From a virus (lineage: Duplodnaviria; Heunggongvirae; Uroviricota; Caudoviricetes): a stretch of 7,837 nt of DNA. The DNA lies in IMG/VR virus record IMGVR_UViG_2711768019_000001, one strand, 5' to 3'. The position numbers were made by a program, and so were the translations under genes. The notes beneath the pieces were generated by a model, which saw nothing but the letters and a program-made list of their open reading frames with translations, searched no databases and was not told the DNA's origin. Each line of letters starts with the position of its first letter. The first letter of the stretch is position 1. Shown here piece after piece: positions 1 through 7,837 of the stretch.

Positions 1-98
1 AGGGACAGCTGATAGAAACAGAAGCCACTGGAGCACCTCAAAAACACCATCATACACTAAATCAGTAAGTTGGCAGCATCACCTCATTCGTCTGTTCC

Positions 99-605
99 TT
101 AAATCTTCCAGGAAATTTCTGCATTGCCGTCAGCATCACCGGCACCTGTGAATTCAGCGTTGGTCAGCACCACGTTTTTGCCACTGACTGACGTGGACAT
201 GAATCCACCCAGCGGCACTTTGATGGATTCATCAGTGGAGACGACAACGTATACCGGATCGCCTTTTTTGATAGTGCTGGCATCAAAATCAGAACCGAGA
301 TTAACGGTCACGTAGCCACGCTTCATGGCGTCGCCCGGGAAGTTCTTGCCTGTTCCCACCTGGCGAACCATGTCCGGCTGCGACGTGGTCGGATAAGGGC
401 GCACGTAGATCCCCTTCACCTTGTCTGCGGTATCACCATCTGCCAGCGGCACGAAAAAACCGTCATCATCGTATTTACCAGCCAGGCCATAGGCAGCGAA
501 GGCGTTATCGGATTTAAGGACCACCGGTTCGACGGTTAAGTCCTGCGGGCGAGAGACAGCCCCGGCAATGCCAACAGGCATCCGGTACAGAAATACATTA
601 TTCAT
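99..605 (-). CDS. phage head-associated structural protein, 168 aa (possible decoration/cement-type protein; function not assignable from sequence alone)
   Basis: Intact minus-strand ORF. ATG at 603-605 with AAGGGT 6-7 nt upstream; stop TAA at 99-101. Its start lies 3 nt after the TAA of the upstream 406-aa ORF, i.e. tight operon packing. It occupies the slot after portal/MuF/scaffold where decoration or capsid-accessory genes sit in SPP1-type head modules. Confidence 0.6.
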   Translation of the reverse strand: MNNVFLYRMPVGIAGAVSRPQDLTVEPVVLKSDNAFAAYGLAGKYDDDGFFVPLADGDTADKVKGIYVRPYPTTSQPDMVRQVGTGKNFPGDAMKRGYVTVNLGSDFDASTIKKGDPVYVVVSTDESIKVPLGGFMSTSVSGKNVVLTNAEFTGAGDADGNAEISWKI

Positions 606-608
606 TTT

Positions 609-1829
609 TTACCCTTTACGGTTTGCCCAGAATTCAGCGTTTTGTTTGTTCAGGGAAGCGATACTGGTCATGCCCATGTTTAGGCGCTGTGCATCGCCGG
701 TGGTGGCGCGGGTGTTTCGCCCTTTGGCAACCTCAGACACGGCATTAAACGCCATGTCGACCGATTGTTTCGGTAATTTGCGGATATCCGCATCACCGAC
801 TATCTGGCGAACCAGCGTTTTGTCAGCAGAAGCCAGAACCTCGCGTTTGAACGCGGTCGGTTTCATCTTACGGCTCAGATCGATACCCGGAACGATAACT
901 TCGGCACGCCAGGCTGAGTCACCAGTAATCGTGGTTTCCTCTTCATCGTCCTCGCCGTCACCGGTCGGATTATCGTCAGGCTTATTATCGTTATCGCCCG
1001 TGGCATTTCTTTCCAGCTTAGCCAGCAGGGCTTTCAGTAATGTTTTGAGGTCATCATCACTGTCGCCGGTTGGATCTCCGCCCATCTCTGGTGCTTTGTC
1101 CGGTAGTGGTTGCTGCGGGGACAGGTTGATGTTGAGATTAACGCCCTGCGGCAAATCCCCCTCATCTCCTGTAACCGATGCGGGAGCCGACTCCACCAGT
1201 TCGTTCATGGTGTCGGCATCTCCTGTCTTGATGGCCGCACGCATGCGGTTCCACCAGTTTTTCTTTTGATTTGCCATTGTGTCTCTGTCTCCAATTGCAC
1301 AACGATTTCCGGCTCTGCCTTTAGGGACAAGAGCCACATGGTTTCCGGTAATATCGACCTGCTCGGCTTTACCTGGCTCGGTCTGCTCGTACTCCGCGTC
1401 ATAGCCGCACGACACTTCGCGCAGGCCATCTTCGATAAGCTGAATGGCGCTTTCGTCTTTGACGATAAGGTCAGCCAGCATCAAATCAGACTGCTCACCC
1501 GTCCCGCGCCGGACATTCTGGAGGTGCCCGACAGCAAGCTCTTTCCAGTTCTCGGGATTTACCAGCCGCACATTCCCGTTTTCATCTTCAGGATGCAGGA
1601 TCGTGATGCTCATCCCTTCGAATGAGGCAAGCGTGGCCGGATGGAATACCTGCTCAGGAGAACGCGTGACGACTATTTCACCGAACTTATCGGGTTTCAG
1701 TTTTGGCAGGTCATCAGCACCATAGAGCTGCTTACCTGTTCGTCCTATCGGCACGTCTTTGCACAGCAACGAGCCGTCAGCCAGGCGGTATCGGGTTTCC
1801 CCGAGCCTGGTCTCAAAAAAGTATTTCAT
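609..1829 (-). CDS. putative scaffolding / prohead-core protein, 406 aa, with a central Asp/Gly/Glu-rich low-complexity linker
   Basis: Intact minus-strand ORF. ATG at 1827-1829 lies 3 nt after the TAA stop (1833-1835) of the MuF-like gene; stop TAA at 609-611. Globular-looking N-terminal ~190 aa, acidic low-complexity region at about residues 201-306 (nt ~912-1229), then a basic/helical C-terminal region. Function is inferred from position and composition only. Confidence 0.6.
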   Translation of the reverse strand: MKYFFETRLGETRYRLADGSLLCKDVPIGRTGKQLYGADDLPKLKPDKFGEIVVTRSPEQVFHPATLASFEGMSITILHPEDENGNVRLVNPENWKELAVGHLQNVRRGTGEQSDLMLADLIVKDESAIQLIEDGLREVSCGYDAEYEQTEPGKAEQVDITGNHVALVPKGRAGNRCAIGDRDTMANQKKNWWNRMRAAIKTGDADTMNELVESAPASVTGDEGDLPQGVNLNINLSPQQPLPDKAPEMGGDPTGDSDDDLKTLLKALLAKLERNATGDNDNKPDDNPTGDGEDDEEETTITGDSAWRAEVIVPGIDLSRKMKPTAFKREVLASADKTLVRQIVGDADIRKLPKQSVDMAFNAVSEVAKGRNTRATTGDAQRLNMGMTSIASLNKQNAEFWANRKG

Positions 1830-1832
1830 GGG

Positions 1833-2615
1833 TTATGCTGCCCTTTTCATTGCGAATGGAACGCGAACAAACACGATCTCTTTATAGCAGCGGCAGTTTG
1901 GCAGCTCGCCCGCGTGGCCGGTCATGCCGTCCAAAGTTGGAGGTGAATCCCAGCGGACGAATTTACCTTTCATGTGATCGTGGGAATCTCGGACATCGCC
2001 ATCATCGGCTGTACGCCAAATATAACCATCCGAGCCAATAGCTATCGCTCGGGCCATATCCAGCGCGCCCGTTGCTCTTCCCAGTTCCGTTCGGGCAATC
2101 AGATCGGCCCTAGACTTAGCAACATCGCCGGTAGATGCAATCTCTTTAGCAAACTGCTCCGCCCGACCACCGGTGACAACAGCCTCTATCGCTTTGTTCT
2201 GGATGTCGTACACCCTGTCTGCGGCCTCGAGAGGCAGAGATTTGATGTACTTGACCTGTTCGGCGATGATGGATTGCATCACCTGGCCCACAGGAGCGCT
2301 TTCCACAAGATTGCGGAGCTCGCGACTGATGTTCTTGCTGTGTTGCCGCCAAACTTTCTCGTTCTGCCGGGTTAGGTCCGCAGTAAAGTTTTCCGCGACC
2401 TTTGTCGCCCAGGGGGTGATGATTTCACTGTAACGCTCCAGCGCCGCAATAATTTCCGTGATACTGTCATTTGAACCATCGTAGCGACCATTTACGATGT
2501 CTCCGACCGCCCTCGCTATCCTGCGTAGGCTGGTTCGATACCGGATTTCCGCCTGACGGCTCCTGCGGTTCGTCATCAGGTTCGCCGATGCCGGGCGGCG
2601 CTTCATCTTCGGCAT
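1833..2615 (-). CDS. phage head morphogenesis protein, Mu F / SPP1 gp7 family (minor head protein)
   Basis: 260-aa intact ORF directly downstream of the portal gene, which is the conserved gp6-gp7 arrangement. C-terminal region carries a Cys-x-Cys motif (ELPNCRCYKE) as recalled for this family. ATG at 2613-2615 has GAGGA 8 nt upstream. The start is uncertain because this ATG makes a 149-nt overlap with the portal 3' end; later in-frame ATGs exist at 2604-2606 and 2574-2576. Confidence 0.8.
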   Translation of the reverse strand: MPKMKRRPASANLMTNRRSRQAEIRYRTSLRRIARAVGDIVNGRYDGSNDSITEIIAALERYSEIITPWATKVAENFTADLTRQNEKVWRQHSKNISRELRNLVESAPVGQVMQSIIAEQVKYIKSLPLEAADRVYDIQNKAIEAVVTGGRAEQFAKEIASTGDVAKSRADLIARTELGRATGALDMARAIAIGSDGYIWRTADDGDVRDSHDHMKGKFVRWDSPPTLDGMTGHAGELPNCRCYKEIVFVRVPFAMKRAA

Positions 2616-3933
2616 TCTCGATGTCCTCGTCGGTAATGGATGCCCCGATGCCGGTTACGTCAGAATTTTCTCGCAAATCAGTCATAGCGGCTTTCAGTGT
2701 CATCAGACCATCACCCAGCGCCGTACTGATTGCGTTGGTGGTGTTTAACGCCACCGTTGAGCGATCGACATCAGACATTTGCCAGAGCGGGTTAAACTCA
2801 AACGTGAAATCGTCCGGCAGCGGCTTGCCAAGTTCCGAACGATGCATGATGTCCAGTATCCGCCGCACCGGAAGACGTAAACGCCTCTCCTGCAACGAAC
2901 TGATGCGATCGTAATAGTTGGCAAGGTCTGCATCACCGGTAGAAAATCCTTTCGGGGACTGTCCGAACAACCGCACCAGTGGGATACCAACAGCGCCACT
3001 AATCTGTTCTACAAACTGCGAAAGGATGTCATCCAGACCACTGAAGCTGTACTGATGGGTTTCAAACTTATCCCGCGAGTCCATGAGCGTCATGCCTTCA
3101 TTACTCTGGAACTGTCGAATCAGGTCGATATTCTTCAGCAACGCTTCATACGCAGGACCACCAAGTGCGATAAGCTCGCGTAGCTTCTCCACGCTGTAGG
3201 TACGCAAATGCGCCTTGTAGACCAGCTGCGCCGCGCCGACAGTAGCGCTGTCGAACGCGGTAAGACGATCCCAGATACGCTCTACAACCGACATTCCCCA
3301 TTCGTTCTCGGTCATCTTCTGCTGAAATGGCAACGTGACGCCATCAAAGCGAATCAGGCGACTGTGATGAATGCGCCAGGCAGGAATTCCCGTTGCTGTG
3401 GTCACCACATCGTAAAACTCAGGTTTACCCAGGTCCGGCCCCATATCTTTAATGCGGCGGGTCAGTGCCGGGTCGACCATCCAGCGGTCGAGCGGGAGAA
3501 TCCCCTTAAACTTGCCCTTACCGATGGTTTCGGGTCGCAGCGGGGTCATTGGTGCCTACCCCTCAATCATGATGAAACCCACCGCGCCGCCGTAGAGGCG
3601 CGACCATTTCAGCACGTCATTCAGCGCATCCCAGATTTGCAACTCATCCAGTTGTGATTCGAGAATGCCACGATCTTTTGCATCAATTTCCGAAGTGATG
3701 CGAATGCCTTTGCGGGTCATATCATCCGGGATAGCATCGACTGCTTCGCCGATGATCTAGGATGAACGATAGGACCATTCCACCAGCATGCGGTTACGAC
3801 TGGTGAAATTAGCCCGGTAGGTGGATGCTGAGTGCTGGTTAGGTGTCTGCATCCCTACGCGGGCAATAAAATTCTCATAACCATCAGCTGTGGCCTGCAC
3901 AGTTCGCCGCAGGGCTTGTTTGTTTCGTGCCAT
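2467..3933 (-). pseudogene. phage portal protein gene (SPP1 gp6-like), single 489-codon frame interrupted by two in-frame TAG codons at 3757-3759 and 3556-3558; longest uninterrupted segment is 2467-3549
   Basis: Minus-strand ATG at 3931-3933 overlaps the terL stop TGA (3933-3935) by one base, a typical coupled start. Translation gives MARNKQALRRTVQATADGYENFIARVGMQTPNQHSASTYRANFTSRNRMLVEWSYRSS, then TAG, then 66 sense codons (IIGEAVDAIPDDMTRKGIRITSEIDAKDRGILESQLDELQIWDALNDVLKWSRLYGGAVGFIMIEG), then TAG, then AP followed by the 360-aa ORF MTPLRPETIGKG...WFK ending at TGA 2467-2469. All three pieces are in the same frame with no indels. Acidic C-terminal tail and position between terL and the MuF-like gene support a portal. 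Typed pseudogene because the sequence as given cannot make full-length protein without stop suppression. Confidence 0.8.
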
Positions 3934-5363
3934 CAGGCCTGTCTCCCCAGCTGTTCCCAGATATCCAGCGATGTATCGATTGGCGCGAAGGCCATAATGA
4001 ATGCATCAGCAACGTTTGGTGACGGTATCTCGCGTTTTGCGAGGTCTTTTTTACTTTCGACCATCACACGTCCGTTACGGTCGAAATCACGATGAGGTGT
4101 TGTCAGTTCCAGTTTCAGCTTTTCAAGCAACGGACAACGAGAATCTATGCTGATCAGCTCATCCACAGGATACTGTTCTCCGTTGTTAATGGCGTTAAAC
4201 GTATTTCTGAAACGGTCAGCCACCAGCCACCATGCCTGAGCCTTAAGATTTGCGAAAAAGTCTTTGTTGGGGATGCCGTTGTACTCGTCATCTGGCTCAT
4301 GCACACCAGCACCGGCGTTAAACCTCTGGTAATTCACACGTCGCGCGTATGCGTTCTCGCTCTTCCGGTCAGCGTTAATTTCAGAGAATTTAGCACCGGC
4401 AGACGCACCAACACCGATAGAGTCGTAAACAATATCTGCTTCACGCTCCAGCGCCGCCTGATAAGTACGCTGGCAGCTCTTCAGTAATTCATCTTCTTTG
4501 GCCTTCCATTCGTCGGCCCAGAAAACAACGGATCCGTGACGGTAAACGTTAGCGCACTTATCTGTACCACTGTCAGCCACGTCAAAGCCAATACGCTTTC
4601 TTCCACTGGGTTCGAAATTTAACGTTTTGTGCGCATCCACTGCGGCTTCTATCCAAGACAGTTTGATGATTGCCGCATCATCATCAGACTCCGGAACGCC
4701 CTCATACACATGTTTAAAACCATCCGGATCACGGCGTCGCGCCGCGTCGATAACCTTAAGCATGGTGTCAGACAGAAACGGATTTTCGTCATAGTTAATT
4801 TTGCGGATGAGAGTGCCTTCGGGCGGATCAACAACGAAGTTGCGCCAGACGAAATCAGTAACAAGTCCGGGGTTGAATATGAACCAGCATTCCGAACCCT
4901 CTTTACGGATCGTTGGCTCCAGAATTTTCCACTGGTATTCCGTCAGTGCGTGGGCTTCTTCCAGCCACAACACATCGATCCCCTCCAGTGACTTAATTTC
5001 TTCGATGTTGCGCCATAATCCATAAAAAACAAATTCCGAGCCAGTAACCCGGTTAATGATTTTGTTGTTCAGAATACGGAAACGGTGCCGCAGACCAAAC
5101 CTGTCTATCTGAATTTTGAGCAGGGTATACACCGACTCTTCGATTTTATTCTGGATCTGACGGGCACAACAAAAACGCAGGGTGTATTTATTCGACAGAA
5201 ATATGGCAATGCCAGCGGCATCCCATGATTTTGACGATGACCGACCACCATAAAGCACTTTGTTACGTGCCCGCATAGTCCAGAAACTACGTAAAGCCGG
5301 ATTCAGCGTCGGTTTGGATGTCAGAGTAGAAGTCATTGAGGTCACGCTCTCCATTGCCATCAT
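3933..5363 (-). CDS. terL: terminase large subunit, PBSX/SPP1-type (N-terminal ATPase, C-terminal nuclease)
   Basis: Six-frame ORF 3933-5444. Walker A-like motif YGGRSSSKSW near the N-terminus and Walker B-like VLWLEEAH, with a long C-terminal domain typical of terminase nuclease. Stop TGA at 3933-3935. Start most likely an internal ATG (5361-5363, 5352-5354 or 5334-5336) rather than 5444, which would overlap terS by 158 nt; AGGT lies 5 nt upstream of the ATG at 5363, GGAGAG 11 nt upstream of the ATG at 5336. Exact start is uncertain. Confidence 0.9.
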   Translation of the reverse strand: MMAMESVTSMTSTLTSKPTLNPALRSFWTMRARNKVLYGGRSSSKSWDAAGIAIFLSNKYTLRFCCARQIQNKIEESVYTLLKIQIDRFGLRHRFRILNNKIINRVTGSEFVFYGLWRNIEEIKSLEGIDVLWLEEAHALTEYQWKILEPTIRKEGSECWFIFNPGLVTDFVWRNFVVDPPEGTLIRKINYDENPFLSDTMLKVIDAARRRDPDGFKHVYEGVPESDDDAAIIKLSWIEAAVDAHKTLNFEPSGRKRIGFDVADSGTDKCANVYRHGSVVFWADEWKAKEDELLKSCQRTYQAALEREADIVYDSIGVGASAGAKFSEINADRKSENAYARRVNYQRFNAGAGVHEPDDEYNGIPNKDFFANLKAQAWWLVADRFRNTFNAINNGEQYPVDELISIDSRCPLLEKLKLELTTPHRDFDRNGRVMVESKKDLAKREIPSPNVADAFIMAFAPIDTSLDIWEQLGRQA

Positions 5364-6051
5364 CAATACCTGCATCACGGCGAAGACGATCAGCCTCCAG
5401 AGACACCTTATCAGTGGCGGCCTTGCGGTAGGCTGTATCAGCAAATATTTTTCCTACCGTCGCAAGCGTGCCAACGATGGACTCAATACGAACTGTATTG
5501 CGCATCATTGCTTTCTCGGCGGCGCTGATATTTTCAATCAGCATCTTCCTTTCCTGGTCCCCATTAGCATCTTCCAGCGACACCAACCACCGACCAATAT
5601 TCTCTGCAGCGACAAGGTTGTTAGCACGAAGGCGAAATAATTCGTCCTCGAGCGTCAACGCTTTAGCGTCCTCTATCACCTCATCTTTGAGCAGAAGGCG
5701 ACGGGCATAACCACCGTGTTTTAATGCCTGCTGGTTACCGGGTTGGAATGGGTTAGTCGGGGGATCGGTACGCATTCCGCGTATCGGTTTCGTATCCGGT
5801 GTAGATTCTGTTTTTAGTTGCGTACTTTTTTGTGTAAGGCCAGTAATGGCAGGCTTTCTGCTGGTACGCACTTTCCTTTTTTGCGTACCATTTTTGCAAA
5901 CCTGCGTACCGCCACTGCGTGCCCAACCAAGCTTTTTGGCCCTCTTCCTGATAGCCCCTTCTGTAACGCCGTATTTCTCGCCTATATCACGGAGGCTAAG
6001 GACTCCGGCCCGGTATGCCGATTCGATGGCCTCCCAGTCCGGTTTTGCCAT
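5287..6051 (-). CDS. terS: terminase small subunit, 254 aa, with N-terminal helix-turn-helix DNA-binding region
   Basis: Intact ORF immediately upstream of terL. N-terminus MAKPDWEAIESAYRAGVLSLRDIGEKYGVTEGAIRKRAKKLGW is HTH-like, as in many small terminase subunits. ATG at 6049-6051 with AGGAAG 7 nt upstream; stop TAG at 5287-5289. Confidence 0.8.
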   Translation of the reverse strand: MAKPDWEAIESAYRAGVLSLRDIGEKYGVTEGAIRKRAKKLGWARSGGTQVCKNGTQKRKVRTSRKPAITGLTQKSTQLKTESTPDTKPIRGMRTDPPTNPFQPGNQQALKHGGYARRLLLKDEVIEDAKALTLEDELFRLRANNLVAAENIGRWLVSLEDANGDQERKMLIENISAAEKAMMRNTVRIESIVGTLATVGKIFADTAYRKAATDKVSLEADRLRRDAGIDDGNGERDLNDFYSDIQTDAESGFT

Positions 6052-6165
6052 GATTATGCTTCCTGTGATTTACTGTTATCGCTGCCTGTCACAATAGGTT
6101 GCTTTAATTCTTCCTCATCACTCACTCCTGCGACGCTCCGTGGCAGGGCCCCCCACAGGAGTACC

Positions 6166-6195
6166 TTGTAAATGTAAGGTGTTTAAGCCTAAATT
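6166..6195 (+). promoter_or_regulatory. candidate sigma70 promoter for the DedA/YqaA-like gene (TTGTAA, 18-bp spacer, TAAATT)
   Basis: Hexamers read directly in the divergent intergenic region 6052-6248, about 55 nt upstream of the ATG at 6249. Weak match to consensus; no experimental support. Confidence 0.2.
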
Positions 6196-6248
6196 AAGTC
6201 GTATCACGGTTAAATAGCAAAGAAAAATTCACAGAAGGAAAGACATTG

Positions 6249-6758
6249 ATGGAGTGGATAAATGCTTTGATGAACTATTTTGTACTTCATCCATATCGCC
6301 TATGGGGGCTTCTTTTTATAATAGCGTTCACAAAATCCACTTTACTCATTTCGGCGATATTGCCACCAGCATCAATTATGATGGCCACTGTAATTACAGT
6401 CAGCAAGACGACTCTTTCACCATGGGAAGCTGGAATCACGGTCATGAGTGGCGCATGGTGCGGTACTATCGTTAATTACCATCTTGGTATAATAATTGGG
6501 CATATCCCTCAACTTGCATGTATAATATCAAGCCGTTCCAATACAATAGAACGGGTTCGCCTTCAGTTGCAAAATAACTCTGTGTCAATACTTTTCACTT
6601 CGCGCTTTATCGCCGTGCTGCGTTATATTGCTCCTTTGGTGGCAGGAATGTTGCAACTTCATCCAGTGAAAGTGTATACAGTGAGTCTGATTTCAGCTGC
6701 TAGCTGGTCAGCACTTTATGTTGGTAGTTTTAGCTTCGTGTTGCCTTTTTTTAGCTAA
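6249..6758 (+). CDS. DedA/YqaA-like (VTT/SNARE-associated family) polytopic inner-membrane protein, 169 aa; moron-type accessory gene
   Basis: Only convincing plus-strand gene. ATG at 6249 (the six-frame ORF begins one codon earlier at TTG 6246) with AAGGAA about 8 nt upstream; stop TAA at 6756-6758. Translation is strongly hydrophobic with several predicted TM segments and recalled similarity to E. coli YqaA (ILPPASIMMATVI vs LLPGNSEVVLVAML; SGAWCGTIVNYHLG vs MGNSLGGLTNVILG). Visibly more AT-rich than the flanking structural genes (roughly 40% vs roughly 53% GC by eye) and transcribed against the phage late operon. Confidence 0.6.
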   Translation: MEWINALMNYFVLHPYRLWGLLFIIAFTKSTLLISAILPPASIMMATVITVSKTTLSPWEAGITVMSGAWCGTIVNYHLGIIIGHIPQLACIISSRSNTIERVRLQLQNNSVSILFTSRFIAVLRYIAPLVAGMLQLHPVKVYTVSLISAASWSALYVGSFSFVLPFFS

Positions 6759-6846
6759 ACTGCCCATAAAAAGCTCTTGCGAATCCAGCTTCCCCCATTC
6801 CTCTGACAACAGAATCTGATTTGAAGGATAATGAGTAAAATTACCG

Positions 6847-7095
6847 CTACCCCCCAAGGCATTGGATCCTGATGTACTCCTGAAGCATTCTCAATGCTGT
6901 CTGGTCGCTGATGATTCCGTCCCGGATACCGAGAACGTTTCGTCCAGCAACTGGAGAGAGTTCGACGGTGGCATCATTGCCCATGCCGGAGGCGCTGGAG
7001 GTTTCGGCTGAGGATGGCACAGGGCATTTTCCTTTGACGAGCACCCGACCACCATTATCAAGCTTGCGCCGAAGAGCATCATTTTCAGCTTTCGC
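6847..7095 (-). CDS. Rz: Rz-type i-spanin, C-terminal part only (5' end lies in the N gap)
   Basis: Translation from the gap edge reads AKAENDALRRKLDNGGRVLVKGKCPVPSSAETSSASGMGNDATVELSPVAGRNVLGIRDGIISDQTALRMLQEYIRIQCLGG. AKAENDALR matches the lambda Rz motif (ADAKAENDALRDD) and the C-terminus resembles P22 gp15 (YLQEYIRSQCLK), both recalled from memory. Stop TAG at 6847-6849 followed one codon later by TAA. Confidence 0.8.
   Translation of the reverse strand, partial: AKAENDALRRKLDNGGRVLVKGKCPVPSSAETSSASGMGNDATVELSPVAGRNVLGIRDGIISDQTALRMLQEYIRIQCLGG
6891..7082 (-). CDS. Rz1: Rz1-type o-spanin lipoprotein, embedded in the +1 frame of Rz; true start probably just inside the N gap
   Basis: Translation MMLFGASLIMVVGCSSKENALCHPQPKPPAPPAWAMMPP... 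has a lipobox (VVGC) and a proline-rich segment matching lambda Rz1 (LVVVGCTSKQ...CVKPPPPPAWIMQPP, from memory). Upstream in-frame codons before the gap read RKLKMML, like the lambda Rz1 N-terminus MLKLKMML. Stop TGA at 6891-6893. Confidence 0.8.
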   Translation of the reverse strand: MMLFGASLIMVVGCSSKENALCHPQPKPPAPPAWAMMPPSNSLQLLDETFSVSGTESSATRQH

Positions 7096-7630
7096 NNNNN
7101 NNNNNNNNNNNNNNNNNNNNNNNNNNNNNNNNNNNNNNNNNNNNNNNNNNNNNNNNNNNNNNNNNNNNNNNNNNNNNNNNNNNNNNNNNNNNNNNNNNNN
7201 NNNNNNNNNNNNNNNNNNNNNNNNNNNNNNNNNNNNNNNNNNNNNNNNNNNNNNNNNNNNNNNNNNNNNNNNNNNNNNNNNNNNNNNNNNNNNNNNNNNN
7301 NNNNNNNNNNNNNNNNNNNNNNNNNNNNNNNNNNNNNNNNNNNNNNNNNNNNNNNNNNNNNNNNNNNNNNNNNNNNNNNNNNNNNNNNNNNNNNNNNNNN
7401 NNNNNNNNNNNNNNNNNNNNNNNNNNNNNNNNNNNNNNNNNNNNNNNNNNNNNNNNNNNNNNNNNNNNNNNNNNNNNNNNNNNNNNNNNNNNNNNNNNNN
7501 NNNNNNNNNNNNNNNNNNNNNNNNNNNNNNNNNNNNNNNNNNNNNNNNNNNNNNNNNNNNNNNNNNNNNNNNNNNNNNNNNNNNNNNNNNNNNNNNNNNN
7601 NNNNNNNNNNNNNNNNNNNNNNNNNNNNNN
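7096..7630. other. assembly gap (535 N) within the lysis cassette
   Basis: Uninterrupted run of n. The six-frame ORFs drawn through it (poly-X) are artefacts. From typical gene sizes (inference) the gap should contain the endolysin body and the Rz and Rz1 starts. Confidence 0.99.
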
Positions 7631-7729
7631 ACCATCGTTACCACCTGGGCCAGTGATTAACACAGATGCTATAGCAACAGCCCCGCCACCAATAGCAACT
7701 GCAACAGCCTTGCGTAATGATGGCGACAT
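7631..7729 (-). CDS. SAR (signal-arrest-release) endolysin, phage 21 R21-like, N-terminal 33 codons only (remainder lies in the N gap)
   Basis: ATG at 7727-7729 with GAGAGGTG 6 nt upstream. Translation [33 protein letters not shown] is a basic N-terminus followed by a Gly/Ala-rich weakly hydrophobic segment, the hallmark of SAR domains, and closely resembles my recollection of the phage 21 R21 N-terminus ([33 protein letters not shown]). The downstream Rz/Rz1 pair fits a lysis cassette. Confidence 0.7.
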
Positions 7730-7783
7730 TATTCACCTCTCGCAGCCTTACTAGACTGGCCCCCTGAATCTCCAGACAACCAG

Positions 7784-7803
7784 TATCACTTAAATAAGTG
7801 ATA
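7784..7803. promoter_or_regulatory. inverted repeat TATCACTTA-AA-TAAGTGATA (9-bp arms, 2-bp spacer) in the leader upstream of the endolysin gene; candidate operator for a dimeric DNA-binding protein
   Basis: Read directly from the sequence. It sits in an 84-nt stretch (7754-7837) with stop codons in all three minus-strand frames. On the minus strand it overlaps a weak sigma70-like promoter candidate: TTAAGA (7810-7805), 17-nt spacer, GATACT (7787-7782). TATCAC/GTGATA half-sites recall lambdoid repressor operators, but the half-site spacing differs from lambda cI sites. Confidence 0.3.
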
Positions 7804-7837
7804 GTCTTAATACTAGTTTTTAGACTAGTCATTGGAG

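Follow-up and report, generated by a model that had tools for sequence, protein, structure and literature searches.

The inverted repeat at positions 7784 to 7803 of the window (i.e., the whole stretch of 7,837 nt that was analyzed) is left-end DNA of the insertion sequence IS2 and not prophage DNA. It coincides with an already known feature, the stretch along the inner edge of the left inverted repeat of IS2 that contains the OrfA-binding site and P_IRL. We consider it highly probable that this part of the IS2 left end is a two-half-site OrfA operator lying over the promoter P_IRL, with no role in the regulation of the lysis genes. The present analysis shows that the DNA is IS2, where the element inserted, and that the palindrome is conserved; OrfA binding and P_IRL come from the literature. 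The apparent operator before the lysis genes is the edge of IS2; the main value of the check lies in preventing misannotation, and it also records the interrupted lysis cassette of this prophage.

IS2 in the holin gene of a prophage

The palindrome (TATCACTTAAATAAGTGATA, plus strand) is composed of a left arm, TATCACTTA (7784 to 7792), and a right arm, TAAGTGATA (7795 to 7803), of 9 nt each, which are 100% complementary and separated by a 2-nt AA spacer. The original prediction of a 9-bp inverted repeat with a 2-bp spacer was therefore exact, and its expectation that such a repeat is unlikely by chance was confirmed. None of 200 dinucleotide-preserving shuffles yielded such a palindrome, and 5,000 mononucleotide shuffles of the 86-nt IS2 stretch produced a 9-bp arm pair anywhere in 19 cases and at the position of the palindrome in 1 case. 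With up to three mismatches permitted, the palindrome was the sole match in the whole window. The conserved inner element of the IS2 terminal repeat forms the left arm and occurs once in the right inverted repeat (IRR) too. The right arm, which lies just outside the left inverted repeat (IRL), is an inverted extra copy of this element and is present at the left end only. A full-text search for the palindrome sequence led to a paper on a Shigella phage-resistant mutant.

On the basis of left-end identity, the IRL match, and the distribution of the sequence, positions 7752 to 7837 (plus strand) are the first 86 nt of IS2, a member of the IS3 family. This stretch is identical to left ends located directly before annotated IS2 transposase genes; the RefSeq annotation at such identical left ends is "IS3-like element IS2 family transposase" with a programmed frameshift, and in the two copies inspected the stretch stops 5 to 6 nt before this coding sequence. 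The 42-bp IRL, which is the transposase-binding and recipient end, corresponds to 7752 to 7793 (plus strand) (PMC3299598). Its published sequence is [TAGACTGG...ATCACTTAA], and the published left-end substrate is [TAGACTGGCCCCCTGAATCTCCAGACAACCAATATCACTTAA]ATAAGTGATAGTCTTA (PMC3299598). The window agrees with the IRL (TAGACTGGCCCCCTGAATCTCC...ATCACTTAA) at 41 of 42 positions and with the substrate at 57 of 58 IS2 positions, the exception being A32G at 7783, a variant common to many natural IS2 copies. The 93-nt sequence at 7745 to 7837 was found at 20,770 places in 4,678 of 5,426 complete Escherichia coli genomes (median, 3 per genome; maximum, 41), on both chromosomes and plasmids (3,725 places on plasmids), and the flanks vary among IS2 left-end copies, as in a dispersed, flank-independent distribution.

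The remainder of the element could be read in an IMG/VR viral contig (L004) that has the same holin/IS2 junction. L004 contains, in full, a 1,331-bp IS2 with CTTAC duplicated at both sides and the remaining part of the holin gene beyond; this IS2 has an orfA of 121 aa and the A6G motif GCAAAAAAG for a programmed -1 frameshift. According to the alignment with L004, the orfA ATG lies 5 nt past the end of the window, and GGAG at 7834 to 7837 (plus strand) is its presumed ribosome-binding site. The 41-bp IRR in L001 and L004 pairs with the IRL (TGGATTTG...TTATCACTTAA, also given as TGGATTTGCCCC...TTATCACTTAA). Regarding its boundaries, orfA position, 5-bp duplication, and length of 1,331 bp, the element agrees with the published IS2 (Hu et al. 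1994; Lewis et al. 2004, 2012), from which it differs by one base (A32G, window position 7783) and by its location in a prophage holin gene.

IS2 interrupts a class II holin gene within its 3' end, 5 codons short of the stop codon. Positions 7631 to 7751 match the junction between the class II holin and rrrD lysozyme genes that is found in many lambdoid phages and in prophages of E. coli, with identities of up to 100%, and in searches with 7631 to 7837 no E. coli or phage match went on beyond 7751. When aligned to the intact holin and rrrD genes of E. coli CFSAN029787, the sequence is identical through ...GTAAGGCTGCGAGAGGTGAATAATG (gene strand) and then fully divergent, with the homology break exactly at 7751/7752. 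CFSAN029787 has an identical lysis-cassette junction with an intact holin gene and without IS2. E. coli VL40 harbors the same prophage (99.9% identical across window positions 84 to 7095), also with an intact holin and no IS2; the order in VL40 is antiterminator-region genes, four tRNAs, holin, rrrD, an Rz-type lysis gene, an opposite-strand DedA gene, and terminase. The identical holin/IS2 junction is present in two IMG/VR viral contigs (i.e., L004 and L005), and an exact search for it in genome contigs gave no match. The window holds only 86 nt of the element; from L004 and L005, we infer that the rest of IS2 follows beyond 7837 in the source genome.

CTTAC at 7747 to 7751 is one copy of the 5-bp target-site duplication, the same pentamer that flanks the L004 IS2 at both ends. 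The CFSAN029787 alignment identified the cut-off 3' end of the class II holin gene (..GT AAG GCT GCG AGA GGT GAA TAA) at 7729 to 7751 (minus strand), and the last A of its stop codon is shared with the endolysin ATG. The 5' part of the RrrD-type endolysin gene (7631 to 7729, minus strand), which encodes a hydrophobic N-terminus, is 100% identical to annotated rrrD of several E. coli genomes, and the remainder of the gene is N-masked in the window. A distance of 22 nt separates the endolysin ATG (7729) from the tip of IS2, and in L004 the endolysin gene is intact (165 aa). The mask consists of 535 N at 7096 to 7630 and hides the greater part of the endolysin gene as well as the beginning of the Rz-type gene; the same stretch is 617 nt in L004 and VL40, so either the mask is not length preserving or the source has an 82-nt deletion.

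The other side of the insertion is seen in L005 (1508 to 1792, minus strand), in which the interrupted holin frame encodes 94 aa, i.e., 66 native residues and a 28-aa tail from the IS2 right end (WICPYISRHLLSLNPLQARCRRYSRGER). The intact holin has 71 residues, of which the last five (AARGE) are replaced by the IS2-encoded tail. Both hydrophobic segments of the holin are kept in the 66 native residues of the truncated protein in L005. A literature search on IS2 and holin yielded nothing relevant. The effect of IS2 on the lysis genes is one of disruption, with a replaced holin C-terminus and 1.3 kb of IS DNA between holin and endolysin. The lysis cassette of this prophage is damaged, and not specially regulated, because IS2 has split the holin gene from the endolysin gene.

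The window is bounded by IS ends, with IS1 at 1 to 83 and IS2 at 7752 to 7837. The IS1 end (reverse complement of GGTGATGCTGCCAACTTACTGATTTAGTG...) matches annotated IS1A/IS1B transposase regions in 4,963 of 5,426 E. coli genomes. Given that there are IS ends on both sides, features close to either end of the window are not to be taken for phage regulatory DNA. Inside these borders, a 170-aa open reading frame at 6246 to 6758 (plus strand) is flanked by the Rz-type gene and a small terminase-like gene and lies on the strand not used by the phage late genes; the annotation of its VL40 counterpart as a DedA family membrane protein suggests that it is a moron.

The probable OrfA operator and promoter P_IRL

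Literature coordinates were mapped on the window by numbering IS2 from 7752. Protection has been reported for IS2 residues 39 to 48, among which lies TAAATAA, the docking sequence of the OrfA repressor (PMC3299598, citing Hu et al. 1994). These residues (TTAAATAAGT; Figure 1C legend and Discussion of PMC3299598) correspond to 7790 to 7799 (plus strand), and the docking sequence corresponds to 7791 to 7797 (plus strand). Since residues 39 to 48 fall at the center of the palindrome, this center is the OrfA site. The TGAT at residues 48 to 51 (7799 to 7802, plus strand) starts the weak extended -10 promoter P_IRL, which drives IS2 protein expression in the first transposition step (PMC3299598). 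In the window, P_IRL (TG-A-TAGTCT, TGATAGTCT) is located at 7799 to 7807 (plus strand) and drives orfA/orfAB rightwards. Its -10 hexamer TAGTCT occupies 7802 to 7807 and is kept as TAG(T/G)CT in all relatives examined; both the TG extension and the beginning of this hexamer fall within the right arm of the palindrome. P_IRL is directed into IS2 (plus strand) and points away from the lysis genes.

The N-terminus of OrfA and OrfAB consists of an H+HTH bundle, which is the binding domain, followed by a coiled-coil, leucine-zipper-like dimerization motif, with OrfA residues 58 to 105 mediating dimerization (PMC3219604). In the mechanism that we propose, the N-terminal helix-turn-helix of the transposase would recognize the left-arm element at both IS2 ends, and the two arms together would form a two-half-site operator for OrfA (InsA, 14 kDa), which has the transposase's helix-turn-helix and the coiled-coil dimerization motif. 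One OrfA subunit presumably contacts each arm; the literature names the central TAAATAA (residues 39 to 48) and not the full palindrome. Because of the overlap between the right arm and the 5' part of P_IRL (TG extension and first -10 bases), OrfA bound at the palindrome would block RNA polymerase and repress orfA/orfAB transcription (plus strand, out of the window), and this repression of P_IRL would keep transposition low. The original prediction had recognized the right kind of site, in that a dimeric helix-turn-helix repressor site matches the published OrfA/InsA binding region, but had assigned it to a phage CI, Cro, or antirepressor protein instead of IS2. Similarly, its operator-over-promoter arrangement holds insofar as the palindrome overlaps P_IRL, but it had the strand (minus instead of plus), the promoter, and the target wrong.

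Two further symmetric elements occur downstream. ACTAGT-TTTTAG-ACTAGT at 7812 to 7829 (plus strand) lies between P_IRL and the orfA ribosome-binding site, and a dyad at 7802 to 7830 (TAGTCTTAATACT / AGTTTTTAGACTA; 13 nt; 85% complementary) takes in the -10 hexamer. Both are kept in close IS2 relatives, and they are not found in the L010 or L011 types described below.

The IS1 repressor InsA binds within the IRL over the insA promoter, the same logic as that of IS2 OrfA. In IS30, the transposase N-terminal fragment overlaps its own promoter, which again corresponds to the left-end repressor logic of IS2 (PMC3299598). The three elements share a small IS-encoded DNA-binding protein that has the transposase end-recognition domain and represses a promoter embedded in the left end, although IS1 and IS30 belong to IS families unrelated to that of IS2 and have other sequences. 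Within the IS3 family, IS911 has the same OrfA/OrfAB layout, including helix-turn-helix and leucine zipper, and relies on the same strategy of a circle-junction promoter; unlike IS2 OrfA, IS911 OrfA has no promoter repressor role and modulates OrfAB complexes (PMC3299598).

Alternative readings of the palindrome

The original prediction was that a phage-encoded CI/Cro-like repressor or antirepressor controls the lysis genes from an operator over a minus-strand promoter. The 9-2-9 geometry does suit a dimeric repressor site, the palindrome lies ~55 nt upstream of the endolysin start (ATG at 7729, minus strand), and the sequence TTAAGA-17-GATACT is found on the minus strand. There is also a resemblance of TATCAC to the operators of lambda. 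The OR and OL operators of lambda are 17 bp long, have the half-site consensus TATCACCGC with TATCAC/GTGATA as outer hexamers, and are placed over promoters. However, these hexamers are 5 bp apart in the lambda operators and 8 bp apart in the palindrome, and tandem arrays in lambda contrast with a single site here; the likeness is coincidental. The DNA is IS2 and is missing from the same prophage with an intact holin (VL40) and from CFSAN029787. This comparison with empty sites, in which homology ends at 7751, excludes a native phage operator. The palindrome is near the endolysin gene because IS2 inserted there and not as part of a native phage architecture. The flanks place it inside the disrupted class II holin gene, and a location within a coding sequence had been named in the original prediction as evidence against it.

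Other expectations of a phage operator were not borne out either. No further copies of the palindrome with up to three mismatches were detected in the window or in the 14.8 kb of adjoining prophage in L005, in which no immunity region was identified; the original prediction had also named a lack of further copies as evidence against it. The TATCAC at 6202 to 6207, in the divergent region between terS and the moron, had been suggested as a related half-site and was rejected as chance, given that the count of this hexamer in the window is unremarkable (7 observed versus 2.9 expected, 2 of the 7 being the palindrome's own arms). The minus-strand pair matches 8 of 12 consensus positions and was not reported by the promoter scan. 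A tie between lysis-gene transcription and a repressor or antirepressor was not supported, as P_IRL reads away from these genes and the site is that of IS2. The probability that we assign to a phage operator is vanishingly small.

The minus-strand hexamers could instead form an outward promoter of the IRL that drives the endolysin and Rz genes and is gated by OrfA on the palindrome, a reading that we regard as very unlikely. As originally described, TTAAGA (7810 to 7805) and GATACT (7787 to 7782) are present on the minus strand with a 17-nt spacer, which is optimal; the -10 candidate keeps A2 and T6, and the palindrome sits in the spacer and -10 region. Nevertheless, the agreement with the consensus (8 of 12 positions) is below the scan threshold, and the -10 candidate is not conserved, given that the closest relatives have GATACC and canonical IS2 has GATATT. 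The sigma-70 consensus scan of both strands detected no promoter-like site; this result is uninformative on P_IRL, because an extended -10 promoter without a -35 element is undetectable by such a scan. Late transcription is made terminator resistant by antitermination, and when arriving from upstream it could cross the IS without a new promoter. IS elements can activate neighboring genes, but the documented case for IS2 uses a -35 hexamer in the IRR (PMC9330008), whereas the IRL faces the endolysin gene here.

It is extremely improbable that the palindrome functions as a hairpin in RNA or DNA (i.e., a terminator, read-through barrier, or cruciform) and not as a protein site. An 8-bp stem with a 4-nt loop can form on either strand, with energies of -7.7 kcal/mol on the plus strand (z = -3.3) and -7.0 kcal/mol on the minus strand (z only -1.6), and the AA/TT polymorphism of the center described below is the product expected of hairpin-templated inversion. 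The stem is, however, AU-rich and weak and is not followed by a U-tract, and judging from the promoter geometry, P_IRL transcripts should start past the -10 hexamer and thus lack the hairpin. Furthermore, footprinting reports protein protection at the site (PMC3299598). An Rfam search with the whole window returned no match. An intrinsic terminator was rejected in view of the A+T-rich stem of about -7 kcal/mol, the lack of a T-run, and the empty terminator scan.

Variation among IS2 copies and relatives

The center of the palindrome occurs in two orientations. Among 63 IS2 copies (L012 to L074), 21 had the window form (AA) and 37 had TATCACTTA-TT-TAAGTGATA, which is exactly the window form in reverse complement; the viral contigs contained the flipped form in 53 stretches and the window form in at least 120. 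The inversion is limited to the central dinucleotide (window positions 7793 and 7794), and its combinations with the A/G polymorphism at IS2 position 32 need no recurrent flips. The double change from AA to TT looks like a single hairpin-templated inversion that is neutral for a symmetric binding protein. Both orientations are expected if only the symmetric arms matter, as a symmetric dimer would not tell them apart. Counting against an OrfA operator at this site, the flip changes the published docking heptamer TAAATAA itself.

For comparison with diverged IS2-group elements, which were taken from plasmids and from one genome per species, we used the 95 nt before orfA. Close relatives (82 to 95% OrfA identity to the L004 IS2) from Klebsiella, Enterobacter, Pantoea, Yokenella, Citrobacter, Providencia, and others keep TATCACT-N6-AGTGATA. 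An element of Rahnella woolbedingensis (L087) has TCACTTA-A-TAAGTGA, with IS2-like arms. The arms are CCTCTTAA-C-TTAAGAGG in a type from Salmonella plasmids and Aeromonas (L010, L090, and L091) and TATCTC-CAGATAA-GAGATA in a Klebsiella plasmid element (L011). The palindromes of these lineages all end at the conserved TAG(T/G)CT hexamer. Symmetry is imperfect in L006 (7 of 9 positions) and in a common TATCACTTA-AG-TTAGTGATA type (8 of 9), and L088 and L009 are degenerate. The numbers of shuffles, out of 5,000, with a palindrome at least as long in the same place were 1 for IS2, 7 for L010, 73 for L011, 23 for L087, and 15 for L008; these tests were made lineage by lineage, because a MAFFT alignment misplaced the left arm of L011 by 2 columns.

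The left arm is in every lineage similar to the inner end of the IRR carried by the same element, and the helix-turn-helix region of OrfA varies among these lineages. A palindrome kept with changed arms fits a dimer operator built from the transposase-recognition element, and is not proof of one. Given that the arms are retained in changed form and that the center occurs in two orientations, these comparisons suggest that OrfA represses its own promoter as a symmetric dimer, which refines known biology and does not constitute a new system. The published view of IS2 OrfA as a repressor of its own promoter is supported by this comparative result. A more far-reaching model, in which the two-half-site operator and the OrfA helix have co-diverged, center flips are cost-free, and OrfA modulates transcription through the IRL into the endolysin gene, is in our estimation unlikely; if true, residual lysis-gene expression would be coupled to the state of the IS through OrfA occupancy in this insertion.

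Five genome contigs (L049, L052, L057, L075, and L078), all very short, encode an OrfA with 95 to 100% identity to that of the L004 IS2. Their assemblies are labeled Streptosporangium, Paenisporosarcina, Lamprocystis, Brevibacterium, and Collinsella, and these copies probably represent E. coli or cloning-host contamination and not true hosts.
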